Below, piece after piece: positions 1-9,744 of a DNA stretch of 9,744 bases (its first letter is position 1; each line of letters opens with the position of its first letter). The DNA lies in IMG/VR virus record IMGVR_UViG_3300029469_000071, one strand, 5' to 3'. Under the pieces are notes generated by a model. That model had not been told where the DNA came from, did not search any database, and was given only the letters and a program-made list of their open reading frames with translations. Source of the DNA: a virus (Duplodnaviria; Heunggongvirae; Uroviricota; Caudoviricetes). A program made the position numbers and the translations under genes.

Positions 1-69
1 CTTGCCGGTGTACATCCAGAACGTCGTTCCCGCACCTTTCGTTTTTGCCAGTGGATTTGGTGTGGTCAT
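1..69 (-). CDS. Major tail protein V-like, N-terminal 23 codons only (gene runs off the left edge)
   Basis: Minus-strand translation from ATG at 67-69 gives MTTPNPLAKTKGAGTTFWMYTGK, which resembles the lambda gpV N-terminus (KGAGTTLW motif, recalled). Perfect AGGAGG Shine-Dalgarno at 72-77 (minus) 5 nt upstream. Position downstream of U matches lambda gene order. Confidence 0.6.
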   Translation of the reverse strand, partial: MTTPNPLAKTKGAGTTFWMYTGK

Positions 70-80
70 TGCCACCTCCT

Positions 81-482
81 TTAATTCGTGTACGTGATCT
101 GGTACGTGATTTCCGCCATCGCCCAGGTGGCCATCTCATTATCACGTTGATAGTTAAAACCGAGAGGGATCAGGGTGTCGATGAGTCCGGAAAGTGCCGG
201 TATATCATTCAGGGCCGGGAAAATGGTGCTCTCCATCCACATATCCAGCTCTGAATCCGGTGCCTGTGCCCGGATGAAGACAGCAATATGCAGAACAGCC
301 TGCCAGTCATCTTCATCCGTCATTTTTCCGGTGTACTGAGCATCACTCAGCCACACCGCCACGGCAGGCAGTTCCTGCGCATCAATAAATGCCGGAAGCC
401 CGTCAAAAAACGTGGCGCTGTCTCCACACTGTTCCCGAAGGCGTGCCAGTACGGCCTGGCGGATTTGTGTATGTCGGTTCAT
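81..482 (-). CDS. Minor tail protein U-like (tail terminator), 133 aa
   Basis: ORF-track protein contains ...ATFFDGLPAFIDAQELPAVAVWLSDAQYTG...DSELDMWMES...DIPALS..., co-linear with lambda gpU (131 aa) as recalled. Start chosen at ATG 480-482, which overlaps the Z stop (TGA 479-481) as ATGA, rather than the ORF-track start at 494. Confidence 0.8.
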   Translation of the reverse strand: MNRHTQIRQAVLARLREQCGDSATFFDGLPAFIDAQELPAVAVWLSDAQYTGKMTDEDDWQAVLHIAVFIRAQAPDSELDMWMESTIFPALNDIPALSGLIDTLIPLGFNYQRDNEMATWAMAEITYQITYTN

Positions 483-1057
483 CGGGTCAGCCATAACCTC
501 AGTTGTTGTTTCAGTGCATACCCCAGCTGTTTCGGCATTTCCGCAGCAATGATGCGGTCGCGGGCATCTTCAAATGTCTGTGTCAGCGGTCCGGACAGCG
601 GGATTTTCACCACATCAATGGGGTAACGATTTTTGCCATCGATACGCCGCATCACATGCCAGCGACCATTCGCCAGTTGCTGAATAAACGCATCCCGGAA
701 AAGATATTTACCCACCTTCAGCACACTGCCACGGTACTGCAGTTTTCCACCACGCCGGGCCAGTCTGACCCGGGCTGTCCCCAGCTTAATGGCAGGCAGA
801 TTGCCCCGGTTAACGCGGATCCTGGCCGTCATTTTTCCTGACGGACTGGCTTTAAACACCCGGACACGCTGACGTACCAGTTTCAGGGGGATCCCTTTCA
901 CCTGGTTATCTCCCGCAACGGTATTCCCGGCAACCTGCCGGGTGGCAACCGAGACCGCTTTCTGTGCCACACGGTTTATCGCCCATGCGCTGGCCTGTGG
1001 CACCATACGGGTATCAAGGCTGTTCAGATTGCGGATGGCATTCTCAAGCCCCTTCAT
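479..1057 (-). CDS. Minor tail protein Z-like, 192 aa
   Basis: Same length as lambda gpZ (192 aa) with co-linear similarity (MKGLENAIRNL..., ...NGRWHVMRRIDGKNRYPIDVVKIP..., ...LGYALKQQLR...). GAGGTG Shine-Dalgarno upstream of ATG 1055-1057. Confidence 0.85.
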   Translation of the reverse strand: MKGLENAIRNLNSLDTRMVPQASAWAINRVAQKAVSVATRQVAGNTVAGDNQVKGIPLKLVRQRVRVFKASPSGKMTARIRVNRGNLPAIKLGTARVRLARRGGKLQYRGSVLKVGKYLFRDAFIQQLANGRWHVMRRIDGKNRYPIDVVKIPLSGPLTQTFEDARDRIIAAEMPKQLGYALKQQLRLWLTR

Positions 1058-1068
1058 CCCACACCTCT

Positions 1069-1344
1069 TTACTCAATAAAGATCATTGGCTTACCGTTAA
1101 AGCGTTCATGCCGTGTGACCGTCCATTGTTGTCCGTCATAAACAACGCGATCCCCGCGCCGTGGGCGGTATCCCGAAGAAAACACCACCAGAGAGACCGC
1201 AGGTCCGGACAGAGCATTCAGCTCTGCCAGTGTTTCTCCCGGGATCACAGTCATATCGACATCATTAATCGAGGCTGTCTTTCCCATCTTTCTGACCGTG
1301 ATCGCATCCATACGCGCTGCCAGCCGGGAAAAGGGATCAGACAT
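1069..1344 (-). CDS. Head-tail joining protein, FII-like, 91 aa
   Basis: Sits between the head genes and Z as in lambda; N-terminus MSDPFSRLAARMDAITVRKMG resembles lambda FII MADFDNLFDAAIARADETIRGYMG (recalled). Start overlaps the stop of the upstream gene (1337-1344). Confidence 0.6.
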   Translation of the reverse strand: MSDPFSRLAARMDAITVRKMGKTASINDVDMTVIPGETLAELNALSGPAVSLVVFSSGYRPRRGDRVVYDGQQWTVTRHERFNGKPMIFIE

Positions 1345-1660
1345 TGAGTTTTACCGGCACTTCTTCTGCACTGGTTCCGGCATCTGCCCAGACAACCCCG
1401 ACCAGCGGATCAGAGCCGCTGTTAGTCAGCTGAACTTTTCCGGACTTCAGATAAACCTTCTTACCCGTTTTCATGTCATCCGTTTTCAGCTTAGGCAGCA
1501 TAAACACACCTTCGGTCATGCCGTCGCCTGTTTCACCCTGTGGAATATCGGTCAGCGCCACCGCAAAAACATCGCCCACCTGCACCAGATCTCCGCTGCT
1601 GATGGCTGCACTGGCAACAATCGCCACCGTTTTTCCTTCTTCTACAAAATTCTTTGCCAT
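1337..1660 (-). CDS. Small head-associated protein, 107 aa (DUF2190-like, possible decoration/cement protein; function uncertain)
   Basis: Start set at the internal ATG 1658-1660 (MAKNFVEEGKT...), which has a GGAG Shine-Dalgarno 6 nt upstream; the ORF-track start at 1705 lies inside hairpins. Glycine- and valine-rich, beta-type composition; sits immediately after the capsid gene. Family assignment is from memory only. Confidence 0.5.
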   Translation of the reverse strand: MAKNFVEEGKTVAIVASAAISSGDLVQVGDVFAVALTDIPQGETGDGMTEGVFMLPKLKTDDMKTGKKVYLKSGKVQLTNSGSDPLVGVVWADAGTSAEEVPVKLNV

Positions 1661-1703
1661 AACTGTCTCCGCACAGCCCCGTTCAGGGGCTGATTTCAGG
1701 TAC

Positions 1704-1723
1704 AAAAAAAGCCCTTACGGGCC
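1704..1723 (-). terminator. Candidate rho-independent terminator or attenuator just downstream of the capsid gene
   Basis: On the minus strand: GCCC-GUAA-GGGC hairpin (GNRA tetraloop, plus 1711-1722) followed by a 7-U run (plus A-run 1704-1710), between the capsid stop (1747) and the next gene start (1660). Confidence 0.4.
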
Positions 1724-1746
1724 ATCAGAGTTGTTGTCTGCGACGT

Positions 1747-3705
1747 TTACGCCGTACATTTCACCAGACCGCGGTGATCAACTGGCGCGACACCGGCGTC
1801 AATACGCACTTTCGTTGTCACGCCATCCACACTGAAGCCCTCCATCTGATCAATATATGGCGTATCCACACCGTTGAGATAAGCCACTTCAATCGTATCG
1901 GAGCCTTTTGACGCAGCCAGGTAGAAGGTGGTCTGGCTGTTATCATCAAGACGAGGCTCTGCAATAACGGTCGCAAAATCTTTCACCGGGTTAATAATAC
2001 CGGCGTTAATGTCAGCCCCCTTGACACTTGAGGAGCGAATGACCTGGTTAGCAACAGACTCCATCGCCGTCGGTACCAGTACGAACGCAGGACGAATATT
2101 CAGATGACGCTCCCCCTCTTTCTGAACGCGCATCAACTGGCGGGCTTTATCCAGCGATGCCACGTCCATTGCAGCGCTCTCCAGTACGTTTGCATGTTTC
2201 GCTTTATCGAACAGACTTACATTATCTGTGGAGATTTTCGGGTTAGACGTCAGAATGGCATAAACCAGATCGGCAATAGTGGATTTCGCCGCACGGCCCA
2301 GTTTCATCGGGACATCGGTCAGCATATTCAGATCATCATTGATAATGGCCTGACGGGTGATACTGAACAGCTCGCCATAGGTCGCCAGTGCAATAGTGGC
2401 CTGTTTATCTCCGGTGGTGACGTATTTATATTCCGCCCCTTCACGCACCTGACGCAGAGCACTGAAGCCCCCCATACCCACACGATGGGCAATTTTAAAA
2501 TCAGACAACTGACCTTTCCGCGTCCACTGTTCATAGGTTTCAGGGGCATCTTCCCAGCCCTGCAGAATGGCTTTGTTCGCAACATCCAGCAGAATATTAC
2601 CGAAGTCAGACGTACTGTGTGTGAACGCCGCACCGACCATCTGCATCGGGTTATAACTGGAAACACCAATACCACGTTCAGTCAGTGACATACGGGCATA
2701 TTCACGCAGGGTCATCCCGTTGTAGACATTATCACGTTCGGTTTTTTCAAATCCGGCACGCGCCATCAGCGCCTGGCGGATCCCGTCCCCCACAAAATTA
2801 CCGTTACCGGCATAAATATGAGCCGGGGTATTTTTATTGGATGGCGTGGACTCGCGCCCCATCTCGTTCAACAGCTTTTCGCGGGCCTGCTCCAGCGAAC
2901 ATTCAGGATCGGCAAGACACTGAGCCTGCAGCGTCTGATAACGCCCGCCAAACATGGCAAACAGATCATTAATACCGTTTACACGCGCTTTTTGCTCTGC
3001 CAGTACCTGCGCACGGATACTGTTTTCATCCACCACGGGTGCTGCTGCCTGCACTGGCGTCCGGGAGGCTTCAGATTCATTATCCTGTACGCGTGGAGCA
3101 CTGTTGCGTGGCGGAGTAATCATGTTTCGAATGGATTCCGGCATCTTTTTAAATTCCTCTGTACGTTTTGACTGAATACATGCCATTGCCTTAACGGCTG
3201 GCGTTACCTGATCAGCAAATCCATGTGCCAGACATTCGGCACCGGACATCCAGGTCTCATCCGCCAGCATGGCAGCAATTTCATCGGTGGTTTTCCCGGT
3301 TTTCTGTGCATAAGCGGGTAACAGAACCGCCTCAACCTTATCGAGCAGGTCGGCATAGGTGCGCATGTCCTCCGCATCACCGCCCGTAAAGCCAAATGGT
3401 TTATGAATCATCATGAAGGTGTTTTCCGGCATAATGACCGGGTTTCCCACCATCGCAATGACCGACGCCATTGACGCCGCCACACCGTCGACATAAACGG
3501 TAATGGACGCACCATGTGTTTTCAGCGCATTAAAAATGGCGATGCCTTCAAAGACATCGCCACCCGGTGAATTAATATGGAGATTAATGTGGGTGATATC
3601 GCCCAGTGCATTCAGATCACTGATAAACTGCTTCGCTGTAACACCCCAGAAACCAATCTCGTCATAAATATAAATATCCGCGTCACTCTGGTGACCAGCC
3701 TGCAT
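1747..3705 (-). CDS. Prohead protease (ClpP/S49-like) fused to HK97-fold major capsid protein, 652 aa
   Basis: N-terminal part has a ClpP-like peptidase signature (ADIYIYDEIGFWGV...INLHINSPGGDVFEGIAIFNALK...VDGVAASMASVIAMVG). C-terminal ~320 aa is capsid-like. Start set at ATG 3703-3705 (MQAGHQSDADIYIYDEIG), 14 nt after the portal stop (TAA 3719-3721); the ORF-track start at 3966 would overlap 250 nt of the portal frame. Confidence 0.75.
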   Translation of the reverse strand: MQAGHQSDADIYIYDEIGFWGVTAKQFISDLNALGDITHINLHINSPGGDVFEGIAIFNALKTHGASITVYVDGVAASMASVIAMVGNPVIMPENTFMMIHKPFGFTGGDAEDMRTYADLLDKVEAVLLPAYAQKTGKTTDEIAAMLADETWMSGAECLAHGFADQVTPAVKAMACIQSKRTEEFKKMPESIRNMITPPRNSAPRVQDNESEASRTPVQAAAPVVDENSIRAQVLAEQKARVNGINDLFAMFGGRYQTLQAQCLADPECSLEQAREKLLNEMGRESTPSNKNTPAHIYAGNGNFVGDGIRQALMARAGFEKTERDNVYNGMTLREYARMSLTERGIGVSSYNPMQMVGAAFTHSTSDFGNILLDVANKAILQGWEDAPETYEQWTRKGQLSDFKIAHRVGMGGFSALRQVREGAEYKYVTTGDKQATIALATYGELFSITRQAIINDDLNMLTDVPMKLGRAAKSTIADLVYAILTSNPKISTDNVSLFDKAKHANVLESAAMDVASLDKARQLMRVQKEGERHLNIRPAFVLVPTAMESVANQVIRSSSVKGADINAGIINPVKDFATVIAEPRLDDNSQTTFYLAASKGSDTIEVAYLNGVDTPYIDQMEGFSVDGVTTKVRIDAGVAPVDHRGLVKCTA

Positions 3706-3718
3706 CCTGAACCAGGAA

Positions 3719-4201
3719 TTATTCTTCGGACTGGTCGTCGGTGTGCTGCGGCTCCTGTCGTTTCGTTGCGGCACTGCTGCCTCCTTTATCACTGGCCGGA
3801 TCGGTATCAAATACCAGATCCAGCTTGCGGTTTTCATCAATTTCGGCCTTGCGCCGACGTTTGACATCATCCGGATTACGACCACCAGCACGTACCCAGT
3901 CTGATTCTGTCGCCGCTCCACCACGAATCTGGATTTTCCAGGCCTCAGCCTCCTTAACAGGGTCAATCCACGGCATCACTGGTCCGGAATACACCGCGGT
4001 ATACAGTGAAGAACGGTCAAGATCGCGGGGTAGCCTGATAACACCGGATGCCACAGCCTGTTTCAGCCAGGCACGATACATCGGGCGGGTGACGGCACCA
4101 ATAAACCAGTCCTGCAGGATCAGGTAGCCATCAGTAGACTCAACCAGTTCCTGACGCTGGGCGCTGTACCTTCTGCCCGTAAGGTGAATGGTAAGGCGCT
4201 T
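3719..4201 (-). pseudogene. Portal protein (lambda gpB family), C-terminal ~160 codons only; 5'-truncated
   Basis: Minus-frame translation ...[20 protein letters not shown]...IDPVKEAEA... matches the recalled lambda gpB C-terminal region (...MFLCWLEEAIVRRVVTLP...IDGLKEVQEA...). The frame is open only to 4201 (in-frame stop at 4202-4204), whereas intact portals are 400-530 aa. Confidence 0.6.
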
Positions 4202-5368
4202 TCAGCGGATATAACACTGACGCCGAAAGATATTGGTACGCTTAACTCAACAACAATGTCATTCAGCGGTGGTGCTGGTTGGTTCAAATTAGCAACGGTA
4301 ACCATGCCACAGGCGAGTTCTGTTGTTTCAATTACGTTGATTGGTGGCGCGGGATTTAACGTGGGGTCACCTCAACAGGCAGGTATATCTGAACTTGTTT
4401 TGCGTGCAGGTAATGGTAATCCGAAGGGGATTACTGGTGCTTTATGGCAGCGCACATCGACAGGGTTTACAAATTTTGCCTGGGTCAATACATCTGGTGA
4501 TACTTACGATATTTACGTTGCAATCGGAAATTATGCGACTGGTGTAAATATTCAATGGGATTATACCAGTAATGCCAGCGTAACGATTCATACGTCACCA
4601 GCATATTCTGCTAATAAGCCGGAAGGGTTAACGGACGGTACAGTTTATTCACTCTATACGCCATCAGAGCAGTTTTATCCGCCTGGCGCACCAATCCCGT
4701 GGCCATCAGATACCGTTCCGTCTGGTTATGCCCTGATGCAGGGGCAGACTTTTGACAAATCTGCCTACCCGAAACTTGCAGCCGCTTATCCGTCAGGCGT
4801 GATCCCTGATATGCGTGGCTGGACGATTAAGGGCAAACCCGCCAGTGGTCGTGCCGTATTGTCTCAGGAACAGGACGGCATTAAATCGCACACCCACAGC
4901 GCCAGCGCATCCAGTACGGATTTGGGGACGAAAAACACATCGTCGTTTGATTACGGAACCAAATCCACGAATAACACCGGGGCGCATACCCATAGTATTA
5001 GCGGGACTGCAAATAGTGCCGGTGCGCACCAACACAAGAGTTCCGGTGCATTTGGTGGCACGAACACGAGCATTTTCCCTAATGGTTATACCGCGATTTC
5101 AAATCTAAGCGCGGGGATTATGAGCACAACAAGCGGTAGTGGCCAGACTCGTAATGCAGGGAAGACATCATCAGATGGTGCTCATACCCACTCGCTGTCC
5201 GGCACTGCTGCAAGCGCAGGCGCACATGCACATACTGTCAGTATTGGTGCTCATACGCACTCCGTTGCGATTGGTTCACATGGACACACCATCACCGTTA
5301 ACGCTGCTGGTAACGCGGAAAACACCGTCAAAAACATCGCATTTAACTATATTGTGAGGCTTGCATAA
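4184..5368 (+). CDS. stfQ: Side tail fibre protein, C-terminal receptor-binding fragment (5'-truncated), 394 aa as read from a GTG
   Basis: Tail-collar-like motif ([36 protein letters not shown]) followed by repeated GAHTHS / GAHAHT / GSHGHT His-rich motifs typical of Stf and T4 gp37-like fibre tips. The ORF opens with GTG, has no convincing RBS or promoter, and abuts the portal fragment. Symbol is from recalled K-12 Qin synteny. Confidence 0.7.
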
Positions 5369-5943
5369 TGGCATTCAGAATGAGTGAACAACCACGGACC
5401 ATAAAAATTTATAATCTGCTGGCCGGAACTAATGAATTTATTGGTGAAGGTGACGCATATATTCCGCCTCATACAGGTCTGCCAGCAAACAGTACCGATA
5501 TTGCACCGCCAGATATTCCGGCAGGCTTCGTGGCTGTTTTCAACAGTGATGAGGCATCGTGGCATCTCGTTGAAGATCATCGGGGTAAAACGGTTTATGA
5601 CGTGGCTTCCGGCGACGCGTTATTTATTTCTGAACTCGGTCCGTTACCGGAAAATGTTACCTGGTTATCGCCGGAAGGGGAGTTTCAGAAGTGGAACGGC
5701 ACAGCCTGGGTGAAGGATACGGAAGCAGAAAAACTGTTCCGGATCCGGGAGGCGGAAGAAACAAAAAACAACCTGATGCAGGTAGCCAGTGAGCATATTG
5801 CGCCGCTTCAGGATGCTGCAGATCTGGAAATTGCAACGGAGGAAGAAATCTCGTTGCTGGAAGCATGGAAAAAGTATCGGGTATTGCTGAACCGTGTTGA
5901 TACGTCAACTGCACAGGATATTGAATGGCCAGCACTGCCGTAG
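5368..5943 (+). CDS. tfaQ: Tail fibre assembly protein (Tfa chaperone), 191 aa
   Basis: Directly follows the tail fibre gene with a TAATG stop/start overlap (5366-5370). Length and sequence ([79 protein letters not shown]...) match the lambdoid Tfa family as recalled. Confidence 0.85.
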
Positions 5944-6040
5944 GGTAAAACATATAAATTCTATAATTAGATGTATCTTTCCATTTACGGCAAGGAAGGG
6001 GGCTTGGAACACGTAAAGCATCTCACACCGAGATTATTTT

Positions 6041-6631
6041 TTATATGTCAGGTGTCTGAAGTTTTGCTTTGGCTCTTAAAATGGTTTGCCGCGAGGTTTT
6101 GAATTCCCGGGCAATGGCACTTATACTTACACCTGACTTAATTCGTTCGAATACCACCTGTTTCTGTTCTTCATTTAACACAGGTGGTCGACCAAAACGT
6201 TTCCCTGCGCCGCGGGCTCTTACTATCCCGGAATGAGTGCGTTCAAGTAAAAGGTCTCGTTCAAATTCAGCGACTGCTGAAATTACTTGCATCATCATTT
6301 TTCCTGTTGGACTGGTCAGGTCAATGCCACCCAATGCTAAGCAATGCACTCTGATACCTGTTTCGGTCAGTTGTTCCACTGTTTTCCTGATATCCATTGC
6401 ATTACAACCAAGGCGATCCAGTTTTGTCACAATCAATTGATCACCACATTTCAGGCGAGCAAGCAACCGGTTAAAACCAGGACGCTCACTGGTTGCTGCT
6501 GAGCCGCTAATGTGTTCTTCGATTATTTGCTGAGGTTTGATTTTAAAACCTGCACTTTCGATTTCCCGGCGTTGATTTTCGGTGGTCTGATCCAGCGTTG
6601 ATATCCGACAGTAAGCAAAAATTCGAGACAT
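6041..6631 (-). CDS. pinQ: Serine recombinase of the DNA-invertase type (Pin family), 196 aa
   Basis: N-terminal resolvase/invertase catalytic domain with the conserved serine in YCRISTLDQ, the [11 protein letters not shown] motif, and a C-terminal helix-turn-helix ([22 protein letters not shown]). Convergent with tfa, as recalled for pinR/pinQ in K-12 Rac/Qin. Choosing Q over R rests only on the neighbouring ydfK/ydfJ/ydfI. Confidence 0.85.
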
Positions 6632-6947
6632 AGTGAGACTCTATACGAAATTGGTGTTCATATCATAATGCATCTCAGAAAATAATTATGATTATTTTTG
6701 TGCATATTTGTATGTACACGTTCGAAAATAAACGAATGCGTATGCAACCCCGTAATTTTGGTGAGACCCAAAATCGATTTTGTGAAAAATGGCTTTAACT
6801 CGGTTTGTTTTTCGAGTTCCGGGCGGACTCAAGGAAGAAGAATAGTGTTGCGTGTTATTTTAACCAGATTTCAAGTTGTTTGGTCGTGGAAAAGTGGAGC
6901 AAAATGTTGTTAAAGTGGAAAAATGATAAAAAAGTAAGTTTATTATA

Positions 6948-7181
6948 TTACATTTTACCATTTAAATTTTGGTTGTCTTTAAGAACTGATATCGCTGTTT
7001 GTAATAATTCTTTGTTATCCAGCCATGATTTTTTCTTTATGTTTCCTTCAATGTAATCAAGCAATGTTCTGGTATTGATAGGTCTTCCCTGTTTTGCTAC
7101 TTCCACTACAGCATCCCCTAGGATAATTCTTACTTCAGGAAGCTGCGCAGGGAACCACTTTAGGGTGTCTTTTGATTTCAT
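6948..7181 (-). CDS. ydfK: Small prophage-borne cold-shock-induced protein YdfK/YnaE family, 77 aa
   Basis: Start set at ATG 7179-7181 (MKSKDTLKWFPAQ...), which has an AAGGAA Shine-Dalgarno 8 nt upstream; the ORF-track start at 7214 adds 11 residues with no RBS. Sits between pin and ydfJ. Identity and the cold-shock annotation are recalled, not verified. Confidence 0.7.
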   Translation of the reverse strand: MKSKDTLKWFPAQLPEVRIILGDAVVEVAKQGRPINTRTLLDYIEGNIKKKSWLDNKELLQTAISVLKDNQNLNGKM

Positions 7182-7450
7182 GAAGATATTCCTTAAAATA
7201 TTATTGATTTTCATTGCGATATTGTATGTCTGATTCAGGATATGTTGACTTATACATCGGTTTTGTCTGGGTTATTGGATATGCCAATCCCTAATTTTAT
7301 TAGGGCATGACTAAAAATGCTGAATATGATAAGGAGAGATGTGATTATCAGTATGCTGTTCATATAGCCTCGAATTAGTAATGTGTTATATATGATATAG
7401 TTGACAATTTTTATCTTGGGTGTTCTTAAAGTTCGTAGATAAACATTGTC
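7182..7450 (-). promoter_or_regulatory. AT-rich upstream/leader region of ydfK; putative promoter and structured 5' UTR
   Basis: About 270 bp of strongly AT-rich sequence upstream of ydfK with several -10/-35-like hexamers on the minus strand (for example TTGTCA at 7401-7406 read on minus) and a perfect 7-bp hairpin CCCTAAT-TTT-ATTAGGG at 7289-7305. No single promoter can be singled out from sequence. Confidence 0.3.
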
Positions 7451-7682
7451 GTTTCAGGTATACAGGAATGCTAACAGGTGGCAGCAAAAATCAGGCGGTT
7501 TATGGCGCAAGCTGAAGCGGCAACTGCAAACTATCTTATGCAGAGACTCTACACGGATTGGGTTTAAAAGTATACATAGATAACAGTTTTTATCTGAAGA
7601 AGAAAAATATCAAGGTGATATAGCCTATATGCCTATGATGCGGAGGAATGAATGTGATGGGAGTGATGTATCTGAATAGTTG

Positions 7683-7723
7683 AAAAACCGCAGACACGCC
7701 TTATGCAAGAACGTGCTGCGGTT
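7683..7723 (-). terminator. Candidate rho-independent terminator on the minus strand
   Basis: Imperfect inverted repeat: AACCGCAG-A-CACG (7686-7698) pairs with CGTG-CTGCGGTT (7712-7723) around a 13-nt loop. Read on the minus strand the stem is followed by a 5-U run (plus A-run 7683-7687 overlapping the last stem pairs). GC-rich stem inside an otherwise AT-rich region. Confidence 0.35.
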
Positions 7724-7966
7724 GGCTGGTAAATTTTTCGATAGTGTGAGTATTGAATGATTTCCAGCCGTTCTTGATTTTACGCATAAATCCATGAAAA
7801 AACTACTTATCTGTTGGGGAGTTTTTTTGGGGCATATATGGGACAGAAATAGGCCCCAGATAGACACTGAGATCGAACTTAGGATGCTTTTTAAAAAATG
7901 CAACTATCTGAAAAAACCTAGAAAACGCCAAGGAAACCACAGGATGGGAAAAAACACCTGTGAATT

Positions 7967-9250
7967 ATGGATTTCCAGTTATATTCGCTCGGCGCAGCGT
8001 TAGTGTTTCATGAAATATTTTTTCCTGAATCATCAACGGCAATGGCGTTAATTCTGGCAATGGGAACCTACGGTGCAGGTTATGTGGCGCGTATTGTCGG
8101 AGCATTTATTTTCGGCAAAATGGGCGACAGAATAGGGCGTAAAAAAGTGCTCTTTATTACCATCACCATGATGGGGATCTGTACCACCTTAATTGGTGTG
8201 TTACCGACCTATGCACAGATTGGTGTTTTTGCACCCATCTTGCTGGTGACGTTGCGTATTATTCAGGGGTTGGGTGCAGGTGCGGAAATTTCCGGTGCCG
8301 GTACGATGCTGGCGGAATATGCGCCAAAAGGTAAGCGCGGAATTATCTCCTCATTTGTGGCTATGGGAACTAACTGCGGAACCTTGAGCGCAACGGCAAT
8401 CTGGGCCTTTATGTTCTTCATTCTCAGTAAAGAGGAACTGCTGGCGTGGGGATGGCGTATACCGTTCCTGGCGAGCGTTGTCGTGATGGTCTTTGCTATC
8501 TGGTTGCGTATGAATCTGAAAGAAAGCCCGGTCTTTGAGAAGGTTAACGACAGTAACCAACCGACAGCAAAACCTGCACCTGCTGGTAGCATGTTCCAGA
8601 GCAAATCCTTCTGGCTGGCAACAGGGCTGCGTTTTGGTCAGGCGGGTAACTCCGGGTTAATTCAGACTTTCCTTGCAGGCTATTTAGTGCAGACGTTATT
8701 GTTTAACAAAGCAATTCCAACAGATGCATTGATGATCAGTTCGATTCTCGGCTTTATGACCATTCCGTTCCTTGGTTGGTTATCCGATAAAATTGGTCGC
8801 CGGATCCCGTATATTATTATGAATACCTCCGCGATTGTGCTGGCATGGCCAATGCTTTCTATCATTGTAGATAAAAGCTATGCCCCGAGCACCATTATGG
8901 TTGCACTGATTGTGATTCATAACTGTGCGGTGCTGGGATTATTTGCTCTGGAAAACATTACCATGGCAGAAATGTTCGGCTGTAAAAACCGCTTTACCCG
9001 GATGGCTATTTCTAAAGAAATTGGTGGTCTTATCGCTTCCGGTTTTGGTCCTATCCTGGCGGGTATTTTCTGCACCATGACGGAATCCTGGTATCCGATC
9101 GCCATTATGATCATGGCATATTCAGTGATTGGTTTAATCTCTGCGCTGAAAATGCCAGAGGTGAAAGACCGTGATTTAAGTGCGCTGGAAGACGCTGCGG
9201 AAGATCAACCGCGTGTTGTAAGAGCTGCGCAACCTTCCAGAAGTCTGTAA
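7967..9250 (+). CDS. ydfJ: MFS transporter (metabolite:H+ symporter family), N-terminally truncated at the prophage junction; probable pseudogene or remnant, 427 aa
   Basis: Contains the MFS loop motif GKMGDRIGRKK and multiple hydrophobic spans. The ORF begins at ...DFQLYSLGAALVFHEIFFP..., which aligns with the end of TM1 in relatives such as KgtP ([20 protein letters not shown], recalled), so the N-terminal tail and most of TM1 are missing. In-frame stop at 7961-7963 and no Shine-Dalgarno before the ATG. Confidence 0.8.
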   Translation: MDFQLYSLGAALVFHEIFFPESSTAMALILAMGTYGAGYVARIVGAFIFGKMGDRIGRKKVLFITITMMGICTTLIGVLPTYAQIGVFAPILLVTLRIIQGLGAGAEISGAGTMLAEYAPKGKRGIISSFVAMGTNCGTLSATAIWAFMFFILSKEELLAWGWRIPFLASVVVMVFAIWLRMNLKESPVFEKVNDSNQPTAKPAPAGSMFQSKSFWLATGLRFGQAGNSGLIQTFLAGYLVQTLLFNKAIPTDALMISSILGFMTIPFLGWLSDKIGRRIPYIIMNTSAIVLAWPMLSIIVDKSYAPSTIMVALIVIHNCAVLGLFALENITMAEMFGCKNRFTRMAISKEIGGLIASGFGPILAGIFCTMTESWYPIAIMIMAYSVIGLISALKMPEVKDRDLSALEDAAEDQPRVVRAAQPSRSL

Positions 9251-9259
9251 ACCCTTAAT

Positions 9260-9290
9260 CCCTTCTCTTACCGGAGAGGGGATTTTTATT
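9260..9290 (+). terminator. Candidate rho-independent terminator after ydfJ
   Basis: Hairpin CCCTTCTCT-TACC-GGAGAGGGG (9260-9281, with G-U pairs) followed by ATTTTTATT (9282-9290), starting 10 nt after the ydfJ stop. Confidence 0.5.
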
Positions 9291-9338
9291 CATATAACAA
9301 AACATATAGCTTGCCATATTTATATTTAAGGAATTGTT

Positions 9339-9744
9339 ATGGGAAATAATTTGTTATCAGCAAAAGCGACACTCCCTGTTTATGATCGTAATAACCTGGC
9401 CCCAAGAATTGTTCATTTAGGCTTTGGTGCATTTCACCGTGCGCATCAGGGTGTGTATGCCGATATTCTTGCTACGGAACATTTCAGTGACTGGGGATAT
9501 TATGAGGTCAACTTAATCGGCGGCGAACAGCAAATTGCCGATTTACAACAGCAAGATAATCTTTATACCGTTGCGGAAATGTCGGCCGATGTGTGGACGG
9601 CTCGCGTCGTTGGCGTCGTTAAAAAAGCCTTGCACGTACAGATTGATGGCTTAGAAACCGTGTTGGCTGCGATGTGTGAACCGCAAATCGCGATTGTCTC
9701 TCTGACAATCACCGAAAAAGGGTATTTCCACTCTCCGGCGACCG
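9339..9744 (+). CDS. ydfI: Mannitol dehydrogenase family oxidoreductase (putative D-mannonate oxidoreductase), N-terminal part; runs off the right edge
   Basis: AAGGAA Shine-Dalgarno 6 nt before ATG 9339. N-terminus [42 protein letters not shown] carries the GxGxFHRAHQ nucleotide-binding signature of UxuB/MtlD-type dehydrogenases. Open to the end of the window. Confidence 0.8.

Follow-up and report, generated by a model that had tools for sequence, protein, structure and literature searches.

We analyzed a 9,744-nucleotide stretch of viral DNA (IMG/VR record IMGVR_UViG_3300029469_000071, Caudoviricetes; hereafter, the window), in which the 3′ part of a lambda-family portal gene on the minus strand adjoins the 3′ part of a side tail fibre gene (stf) on the plus strand. 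The window probably holds the right-hand junction of a ~17-kb inversion in a lambdoid prophage of E. coli integrated at ydfJ, generated by a conservative exchange at a TA dinucleotide whose features point to serine-recombinase-type chemistry. The inversion itself is ordinary among prophages. Its endpoint in stf is apparently an undescribed recurrent recombination hot spot: we found no paper that describes it, and this position has been used by ~20 independent rearrangements in at least four prophage lineages.

An initial annotation, made from the letters of the window alone, had placed a truncated portal gene back-to-back with a truncated stf gene at 4034-4260, and the boundaries of DNA identity on both sides bear this out. 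In megablast comparisons against complete E. coli genomes (5426), intact portal genes of 502 aa match the window (up to 100% identity, 2045 genomes) only as far as position 4168, and the match to intact 971/987-aa stf genes (99.6%) starts at 4166. The breakpoint thus lies within the 3-bp sequence GTA at 4166-4168, which is also the overlap seen when the window is aligned base by base with L001, which has an intact portal, and L002, which has an intact stf of 987 codons; the annotation had proposed such a comparison for placing the breakpoint to the base. Both genes are indeed cut at one place, as was claimed, but ~20-35 bp further left than the estimate of 4185-4205. The minus-strand portal frame is open from 4201 to a stop codon at 3719-3721 and had been counted as ~160 C-terminal portal codons; only 149 of these codons derive from the portal gene, while the remaining 11, up to 4201, are antisense stf. 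The GTG at 4184, taken for the tail fibre start, is an internal valine codon of intact stf.

The portal piece is a C-terminal gene fragment, not a gene. It matches positions 323-457 of the 457 in TIGR01539 (portal_lambda; E 2e-43, 148.7 bits, under the cut-off of 172.7), has no Pfam match at E<=0.01, and falls short of a full-length portal profile (TIGR01539 / PF05136, ~457-500 residues). Likewise, an intact Stf comprises an N-terminal tail-attachment domain, repeats and a C-terminal collar/receptor-binding part, followed by tfa, and the N-terminal 587 codons are missing here. A frameshifted portal of the kind seen in O157 (374 aa + 120 aa) was rejected, since the portal DNA continues in that case, whereas here homology stops at 4168. 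The 34-mer spanning the junction recurs in an independent gut-metagenome contig (L169, see below). The junction is rare: none of the 5426 complete genomes has it, and junction 34-36-mers gave no hit in GTDB species representatives, in IMG/VR or among JGI metagenome contigs. In addition, no record was found for the 61-aa open reading frame (ORF) that spans the junction, and the predicted chimeric protein with the portal N-terminal part is absent from the protein collection.

The initial annotation attributed this arrangement to one large inversion with its ends in portal and stf, and the two predictions made from it hold. Firstly, tail genes were expected to continue leftward on the minus strand. 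L169, a human-gut metagenome contig (ERR1190647 / PRJEB12123) recovered by exact look-up of the capsid protein, matches window 1-4811 at 99.9% identity with 5 SNP differences and runs 3 kb past the window's left end, where V, G, T and the tape-measure gene (H) follow in the direction of the head genes. The other expectation was a reciprocal junction of the portal and stf N-terminal parts. When IMG/VR was scanned for the stf N-part sequence ...GATAATGCGAATGGTCGGGTA (ending ...GGTCGGGTA) with any next base except C, one locus alone matched: viral contig L157, which carries this junction, again with GTA as the overlap, and reads stfN...GGTCGGGTA/AGTGCCGTTATAGTTGCG... or, at greater length, ...AATGGTCGGGTA/AGTGCCGTTATAGTTGCGTGCCGTACTGG... 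(the slash marks the junction). To the right lies, inverted, the stretch that in intact portals comes after the breakpoint of the window and then, on the minus strand, W, terL (700 aa), a DUF1441 terS (164 aa) and lysis genes. L157 carries the first 73 nt of the 3′ end of the missing stf N-terminal part, and its nt 1149-7887 agree at 99.3% identity with the prophage that relatives of the window carry at the Qin site (L014).

The two junctions show that the exchange was reciprocal and conservative at the TA dinucleotide. The parental sequences GGTCGGG-TA-CCTTCT (stf) and GCGCTG-TA-AGTGCC (portal) gave the products GCGCTG-TA-CCTTCT (window and L169) and GGTCGGG-TA-AGTGCC (L157), with zero bases lost or gained at either junction. 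Strains with an intact prophage at the same ydfJ site carry H-M-L-K-I-J-lom-stf(971 aa)-tfa on one strand and pin on the other. Accordingly ordered, the parental prophage would have read lysis-terS-terL-W-portal-capsid-...-V-G-T-H-...-J-lom-stf-tfa, then pin on the opposite strand, and everything between portal codon 354 and stf codon 588 would have been flipped (~17 kb, from distances summed over intact relatives). The flip would leave the portal C-part abutting the stf C-part, as in the window, and the portal N-part abutting the stf N-part, as in L157. Because portal and stf are each broken in two and late transcription now runs antisense through the morphogenetic genes, the prophage is defective and unable to form particles. 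A separate alteration is seen in L027, where an IS200-type Y1 transposase gene (6507-6965) sits between lom and stf in an otherwise intact Qin-site prophage.

The stf endpoint, CGGG-TA-CCTTCTGCC in the wider context GGTCGGG-TA-CCTTCTGCCCGTAAGG (tag for its flanks, CCTTCTGCCCGTAAGGTGAATGG), recurs in other prophages to the base. The exact 394-aa ORF of the truncated gene (stf') occurs in many assemblies behind differing upstream genes. Using exact-protein look-up, complete genomes and an IMG/VR pattern scan, we found ~20 distinct left flanks among 37 fetched loci, all of which stop at the same TA; 108 fetched loci are intact across the site. The left partners include DUF1441 terS, two Nu1-type terS positions, lambda-like gpA, W, the inverted portal (window), tape measure, J, two positions within stf, trkG and early genes, and the prophages concerned are of the Qin, Rac, DLP12 and attB-lambda types. 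Scans that excluded one position at a time detected no displaced junction at 4168, 4169 or 4170, and one junction carries C in place of T at 4167. Bias of the exact-protein look-up was rejected as the source of the fixed endpoint, because the pattern scans are independent of gene calls and because such a bias could confine the sample to tens of bp, not to one bond. The nearest relatives at this locus (99.66% identity) lack either the portal-to-stfN segment (W/stf') or the terS-to-stfN segment (DUF1441'/stf'), each deleted at the same TA; two different deletions at one TA in near-identical relatives mean that the site was used repeatedly within one lineage. The occurrence of the W and DUF1441 terS partners within one such strain group suggests that the hybrid site was reused.

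The 394-400-codon stf tip is kept together with tfa in unrelated cryptic prophages, always cut at the same base. These lie at the Qin site (L013-L021), at the Rac site (L003), in the DLP12-type position by nohD/appY-like genes (L017/L022/L023) and by ybhB/bio (L024). Several structural explanations of the fixed end were tried and discarded. A mobile stfC-tfa cassette or transposon end lacks a common right boundary (homology ends variably at 5930-5949), and the TA in the products L024 and L146 cannot derive from the target. A hairpin at the fixed end (TACCTT...AAGGTG) has a fold z of -0.6. Resemblance to lambda cosN (GGTCGGGTACCT against the cohesive end GGGCGGCGACCT; 9/12) was set aside, as the nicks would fall 7 and 5 nt off the observed bond. 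A different point in the fibre gene was used in L028 (CP043541.1, ~9122-10001), where the tfa-pin-ydfK-ydfJ block stands behind fusA and tuf-like sequence: the join to stf, at the window equivalent of 4742 (...CGTCAC TA GGGCAGAC), is a chromosomal rearrangement.

The partners of the stf site were compared using 16 uninterrupted partner sites recovered from other loci. TA lies exactly at the crossover in 13 of the 16, against a TA background of 4.7% (P ~2e-15). The remaining partners carry CA (two) or TG (one), and their products retain TA (L024, L146) or CA (L067); since either version results, the two crossover bases behave as an overlap inherited from either parent. L024 shows zero microhomology and is joined at the same bond. 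Beyond TA, similarity is weak, with some excess of G before and C after, and TACC is found in just 3/16 partners. Judged from these sites, the exchange fits an overlap of 2 bp and argues against one of 4 bp. A 4-bp gyrase-type overlap is disfavoured both by the scarcity of TACC and by the fact that no junction has partner-derived bases at 4169-4170. Taken together, the rules of the exchange, i.e. TA in both parents, either core kept on mismatch, and no loss of bases, look like the work of an enzyme and not of accident.

A second recurrent TA breakpoint, intact in the window, lies within the portal gene at 3893-3894, with ...GACTGGG TA CGTGCTGGTGG (...GACTGGG-TA-CGTG...) on the coding strand and the flank tag ...GACTGGGTA. 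Six singleton chimeric portal proteins break after ...ESDWV, and DNA junctions link this TA to J, tape measure, Lom and the stf hot site; all partners carry TA. The motif GGGTAC(N3)CTG is common to the portal hot site, the stf site and the W partner site. A perfect Chi sequence, CCACCAGC, lies 3 nt from the portal TA at 3882-3889 (plus-strand numbering; portal coding strand), where O157 alleles have GCAGGTGG. Portal fusions also recur after ...WVRAGGR (DNA GGTCG TA ATCC, TA at window 3877-3878) and after ...IIYDDLK; the proteins showing these further points are P0003/P0011 and P0023/P0024.

As for the mechanism, the events would be explained if a reaction of the serine-recombinase type broke and rejoined the DNA with a 2-bp stagger, pairing a preferred stf site with secondary sites that are weak; the palindromic TA core would permit both deletion and inversion. 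Given a reciprocal, loss-free exchange, an invariant bond, a 2-bp overlap taken from either parent and a palindromic core, such chemistry between preferred and secondary sites may well have been at work. An intact PinQ-type recombinase gene lies 1.9 kb downstream of the crossover, and, speculatively, the enzyme would be its product or a Pin paralogue acting in trans. The protein is 100% identical to that of the functional phages Tritos, mEp460_ev081 and 2H10 and 38% identical to PinE; its nearest solved structures are Gin, then gamma-delta resolvase. PinQ is experimentally active, inverting the 1797-bp P segment of e14 (PMC12529663), and a passing remark in one publication names stf-associated invertases as the probable drivers of stf exchanges (PMC3945230). 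PinQ specifically is a tentative candidate. Likewise, it is possible, if somewhat doubtful, that stf contains an undescribed site-specific target (~CGGG-TA-CNNNCTG), with a similar one in portal, which is used by a prophage-borne serine recombinase, perhaps PinQ/PinR, with a palindromic TA core; off-target partners at any point upstream would then lead to repeated, convergent deletion or inversion of morphogenetic genes. In phage Tritos (L158, 6001-10858), whose PinQ is identical, the recombinase gene stands after a pair of tail-fibre genes and a pair of small ORFs, and no inverted spare cassette is present.

Several observations weigh against a site-specific recombinase, and against PinQ in particular. 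The stf site has no dyad symmetry, and its TA-centred sequence matches the e14 pix half-sites at 6/24 positions, below the window background. The initial annotation had proposed comparing the two junctions for a short inverted repeat or a Pin-type crossover-like sequence; the portal partner shares only GTA with the stf site, and there is no similarity to pix. A pix-like crossover site was likewise rejected for the stf end, where the apparent resemblance, CCTTCT(C/G)CC, is in the wrong register and orientation. Between tfa and pin there is no inverted copy of the site (best local alignment score of 14, equal to the null mean; none by repeat search). pin lies downstream of 12/24 junction-bearing and 22/57 intact loci, similar rates that show no association in cis, and there is no pin near junctions of the DLP12 and attB-lambda types. 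Deletions make up most of the events, whereas inversion is the favoured outcome of enhancer-dependent invertases. Partners share extra microhomology with the stf site (G, GG, CGGG, TACC), which is also expected from annealing-based joining. A rough screen of the fetched loci found TA-centred deletions away from the hot sites as well, so that a general cellular process is possible. These include a terL deletion in L016 (~9082 vs L014 7200/9082; CGGG TA TGG x CAGC TA TCC), an internal stf deletion in L065 (window equivalents 4571/5185; CCAG TA ATG x CTCA TA CCC) and the K-12 nohA/stfQ joint in L004 (GAATA TA ACC). Other deletions are not TA-centred: L128 has a 6-bp direct repeat (CGCCAG), L154 no overlap, and L023 GCGGA/CCCGG. 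Finally, the main remaining gap is that the two reciprocal junctions come from different samples and not from one genome.

Much of this would also be accommodated by microhomology-assisted illegitimate joining at a break-prone G/TA in stf and portal with no site-specific recombinase. DNA at this spot would repeatedly suffer a double-strand break, a nick or a stall in replication, and end joining or template switching would mend it at any TA in the vicinity, yielding deletions and now and then an inversion. The overlaps of 0-8 bp are enriched for stf-matching bases on both sides of TA, the majority of events amount to simple direct-orientation deletions, and the occurrence of TA-centred deletions elsewhere and a site with neither recombinase-like dyad symmetry nor pix similarity are in keeping with such a process. 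However, both inversion junctions are perfectly conservative, which two independent end joinings would rarely achieve, and the ~20 events show zero one-base drift, unlike resection-based joining. The hairpin that might fix the break is not significant, and the L024 junction uses the same bond with no microhomology to guide it. On balance, joining of this kind appears unlikely, though it is the main alternative; it would account for the extra flanking matches and for the TA-centred deletions elsewhere.

A history in two steps, with two prophages, is improbable. Here a Qin-site prophage would already have lost the portal-to-stfN segment, and the head/tail block would have arrived later, through a chromosomal inversion or translocation involving another lambdoid prophage, with renewed use of the hybrid site. 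In its favour, the closest relatives (99.66%) already have stf' cut at the same base and joined to W or DUF1441 terS, strains with an intact prophage at the locus are just 98.2% identical, and a genome can contain as many as 9 copies of such head genes. L157, on the other hand, joins the stf N-part directly to the portal N-part, W and terminase of a Qin-type prophage (99.3% to L014), a junction that a prophage lacking stfN could not supply. It is very improbable that the junction is an artefact, either a chimeric assembly join or merely an O157-like frameshifted portal, even though it occurs in 0/5426 complete E. coli genomes and an identical 120-aa portal tail ORF is common owing to the O157 frameshift. 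Portal homology ends at 4168 with no frame shift, the same junction is present in L169 despite 5 SNP differences, many natural junctions, including several from finished genomes, sit at exactly this base, and an overlap of 3 bp is far too short for an assembler join.

The preferred reading, a conservative inversion by serine-recombinase-type exchange, can be compared with known systems. In the e14 P-segment (PinE/PinQ/PinR) and its relatives Hin, Gin, Cin and Pin, a small serine recombinase gene lies by the tail fibre and tfa genes and the crossover falls within the coding sequence for the tail fibre, 5′ of the part that binds the receptor, and both are seen in the window. A conservative reciprocal exchange at a 2-bp core is also found, its two products coming from different samples, together with an adjacent 196-aa recombinase (Resolvase + HTH_7). 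The two inverted 26-bp hix/gix/cix/pix sites of those systems are lacking, the stf site agreeing with pix at only the 6/24 positions given above. Unlike e14, the window has no spare inverted fibre cassette and its core is TA, not AA; ~17 kb of morphogenetic genes were flipped and two genes destroyed, with no host-range switch, and most events at the site are deletions.

The locus also behaves like recombination between a cognate site and quasi-sites. Iida and Arber reportedly described Cin acting at cixQ quasi-sites in P1, and Parkinson and Davis are said to have obtained Int-promoted lambda deletions fixed at attP. Such recombination likewise has one fixed preferred endpoint, many weak partners that share mainly the crossover bases, deletions or inversions as products, and mismatched cores that go either way. 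In the present case, by contrast, enzyme and cognate site are candidates only, and the events, seen in several prophage families, have become fixed in natural populations. Subunit exchange by DNA gyrase (topoisomerase II) is a further means of reciprocal conservative exchange without long homology, acting at preferred cleavage sites and with an overlap of 4 bp. A conservative reciprocal product such as the present one is possible by this route, but the 4-bp overlap is not matched by the partners (TACC in 3/16). With respect to cryptic prophages (Qin, Rac, DLP12, e14), the window has the same site and right-end genes as K-12 Qin, namely stfQ-tfaQ-pinQ-ydfK-ydfJ, and K-12 differs in having the nohA/stfQ junction and another stf allele upstream of window 4671. 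As in cryptic-prophage decay, the fibre tip, tfa and pin persist whereas genes for morphogenesis have been lost or disrupted; here, however, nothing was deleted, and the block was inverted at a recurrent TA.

The features of the window are listed in Table 1.

Table 1. Features of the 9,744-nucleotide window
Feature	Position	Strand	Basis or remark
Crossover dinucleotide TA	4167..4168		Inverted portal leftward, stf rightward; base-level alignment to intact portal L001 and intact stf L002
Portal C-terminal fragment, lambda family; 149 codons + stop (residue 354 to end)	3719..4168	-	TIGR01539 and DNA identity
stf', 3′ 400 codons of 987-codon side tail fibre gene	4166..5368	+	Pfam Collar and Phage_fiber; 98.5-99.6% identity to intact stf
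Longest stf' ORF (394 aa)	4184-5368	+	Begins at internal GTG 4184
tfa, tail fibre assembly gene, 191 aa	5368..5943	+	Pfam Caudo_TAP, E 3.6e-43; thousands of assemblies encode an identical protein
PinQ/PinR-type small serine recombinase, 196 aa, intact	6041..6631	-	Pfam Resolvase and HTH_7
Inverted head/tail block	81..3774	-	Pfam; 99.6% colinear with intact prophages
U	81-494	-	Pfam
Z	479-1057	-	Pfam
91-aa Gifsy-2-family (PF13856) gene, between cement gene and Z	1069-1344	-	Pfam
Cement protein	1337-1705	-	Pfam
ClpP-protease/major-capsid fusion	1747-3774	-	Pfam
V	Start just left of 81	-	Extension of the block in L169
Prophage right end and host flank (Qin integration site)	6948..9250		Identity to K-12; same neighbours in L013-L021
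ydfK-like gene	6948-7214	-	Prophage right end
ydfJ transporter fragment (truncated MFS gene)	7967-9250	+	Host flank
Second recurrent TA breakpoint, within portal, intact in window	3893..3894		Six chimeric portal proteins and DNA junctions

Window 4671-9744 is 99.35% identical to the K-12 Qin/ydfJ region. Within the inverted block, the 739-aa ORF listed for the protease/capsid fusion (1747-3966, minus strand) includes a spurious 64-codon extension over the portal 3′ end; in its relatives the gene is annotated as starting at the GTG at 3774 (675 aa). Exact matches to the 675-aa variant are rare: it was found in 20 contigs (18 from ENA metagenome assemblies and 2 from Logan run assemblies), and those that are labelled come from human gut. 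The 91-aa PF13856 gene (L001 3770-4045) bears the RefSeq name ‘DNA breaking-rejoining protein’; its position would suit a head-tail joining protein, the name probably being a legacy annotation. To the right of the crossover TA, the sequence GTAAGG occurs as two direct copies 11 bp apart (CGTAAGGTGAATGGTAAGGCG, window 4180-4196), the first of them 12 nt away, and these may be a protein-binding feature or a chance occurrence.

If an enzyme is responsible for the exchanges at the stf TA, this would explain why an identical 394-400-codon fibre tip with tfa, and in some cases pin, is found in so many cryptic prophages, and it would give recombinases of the PinQ/PinR type a native activity. Prophage decay would then be directed and convergent rather than random, and the surviving cassette of fibre tip, tfa and recombinase would represent an enzyme-driven route of prophage domestication.

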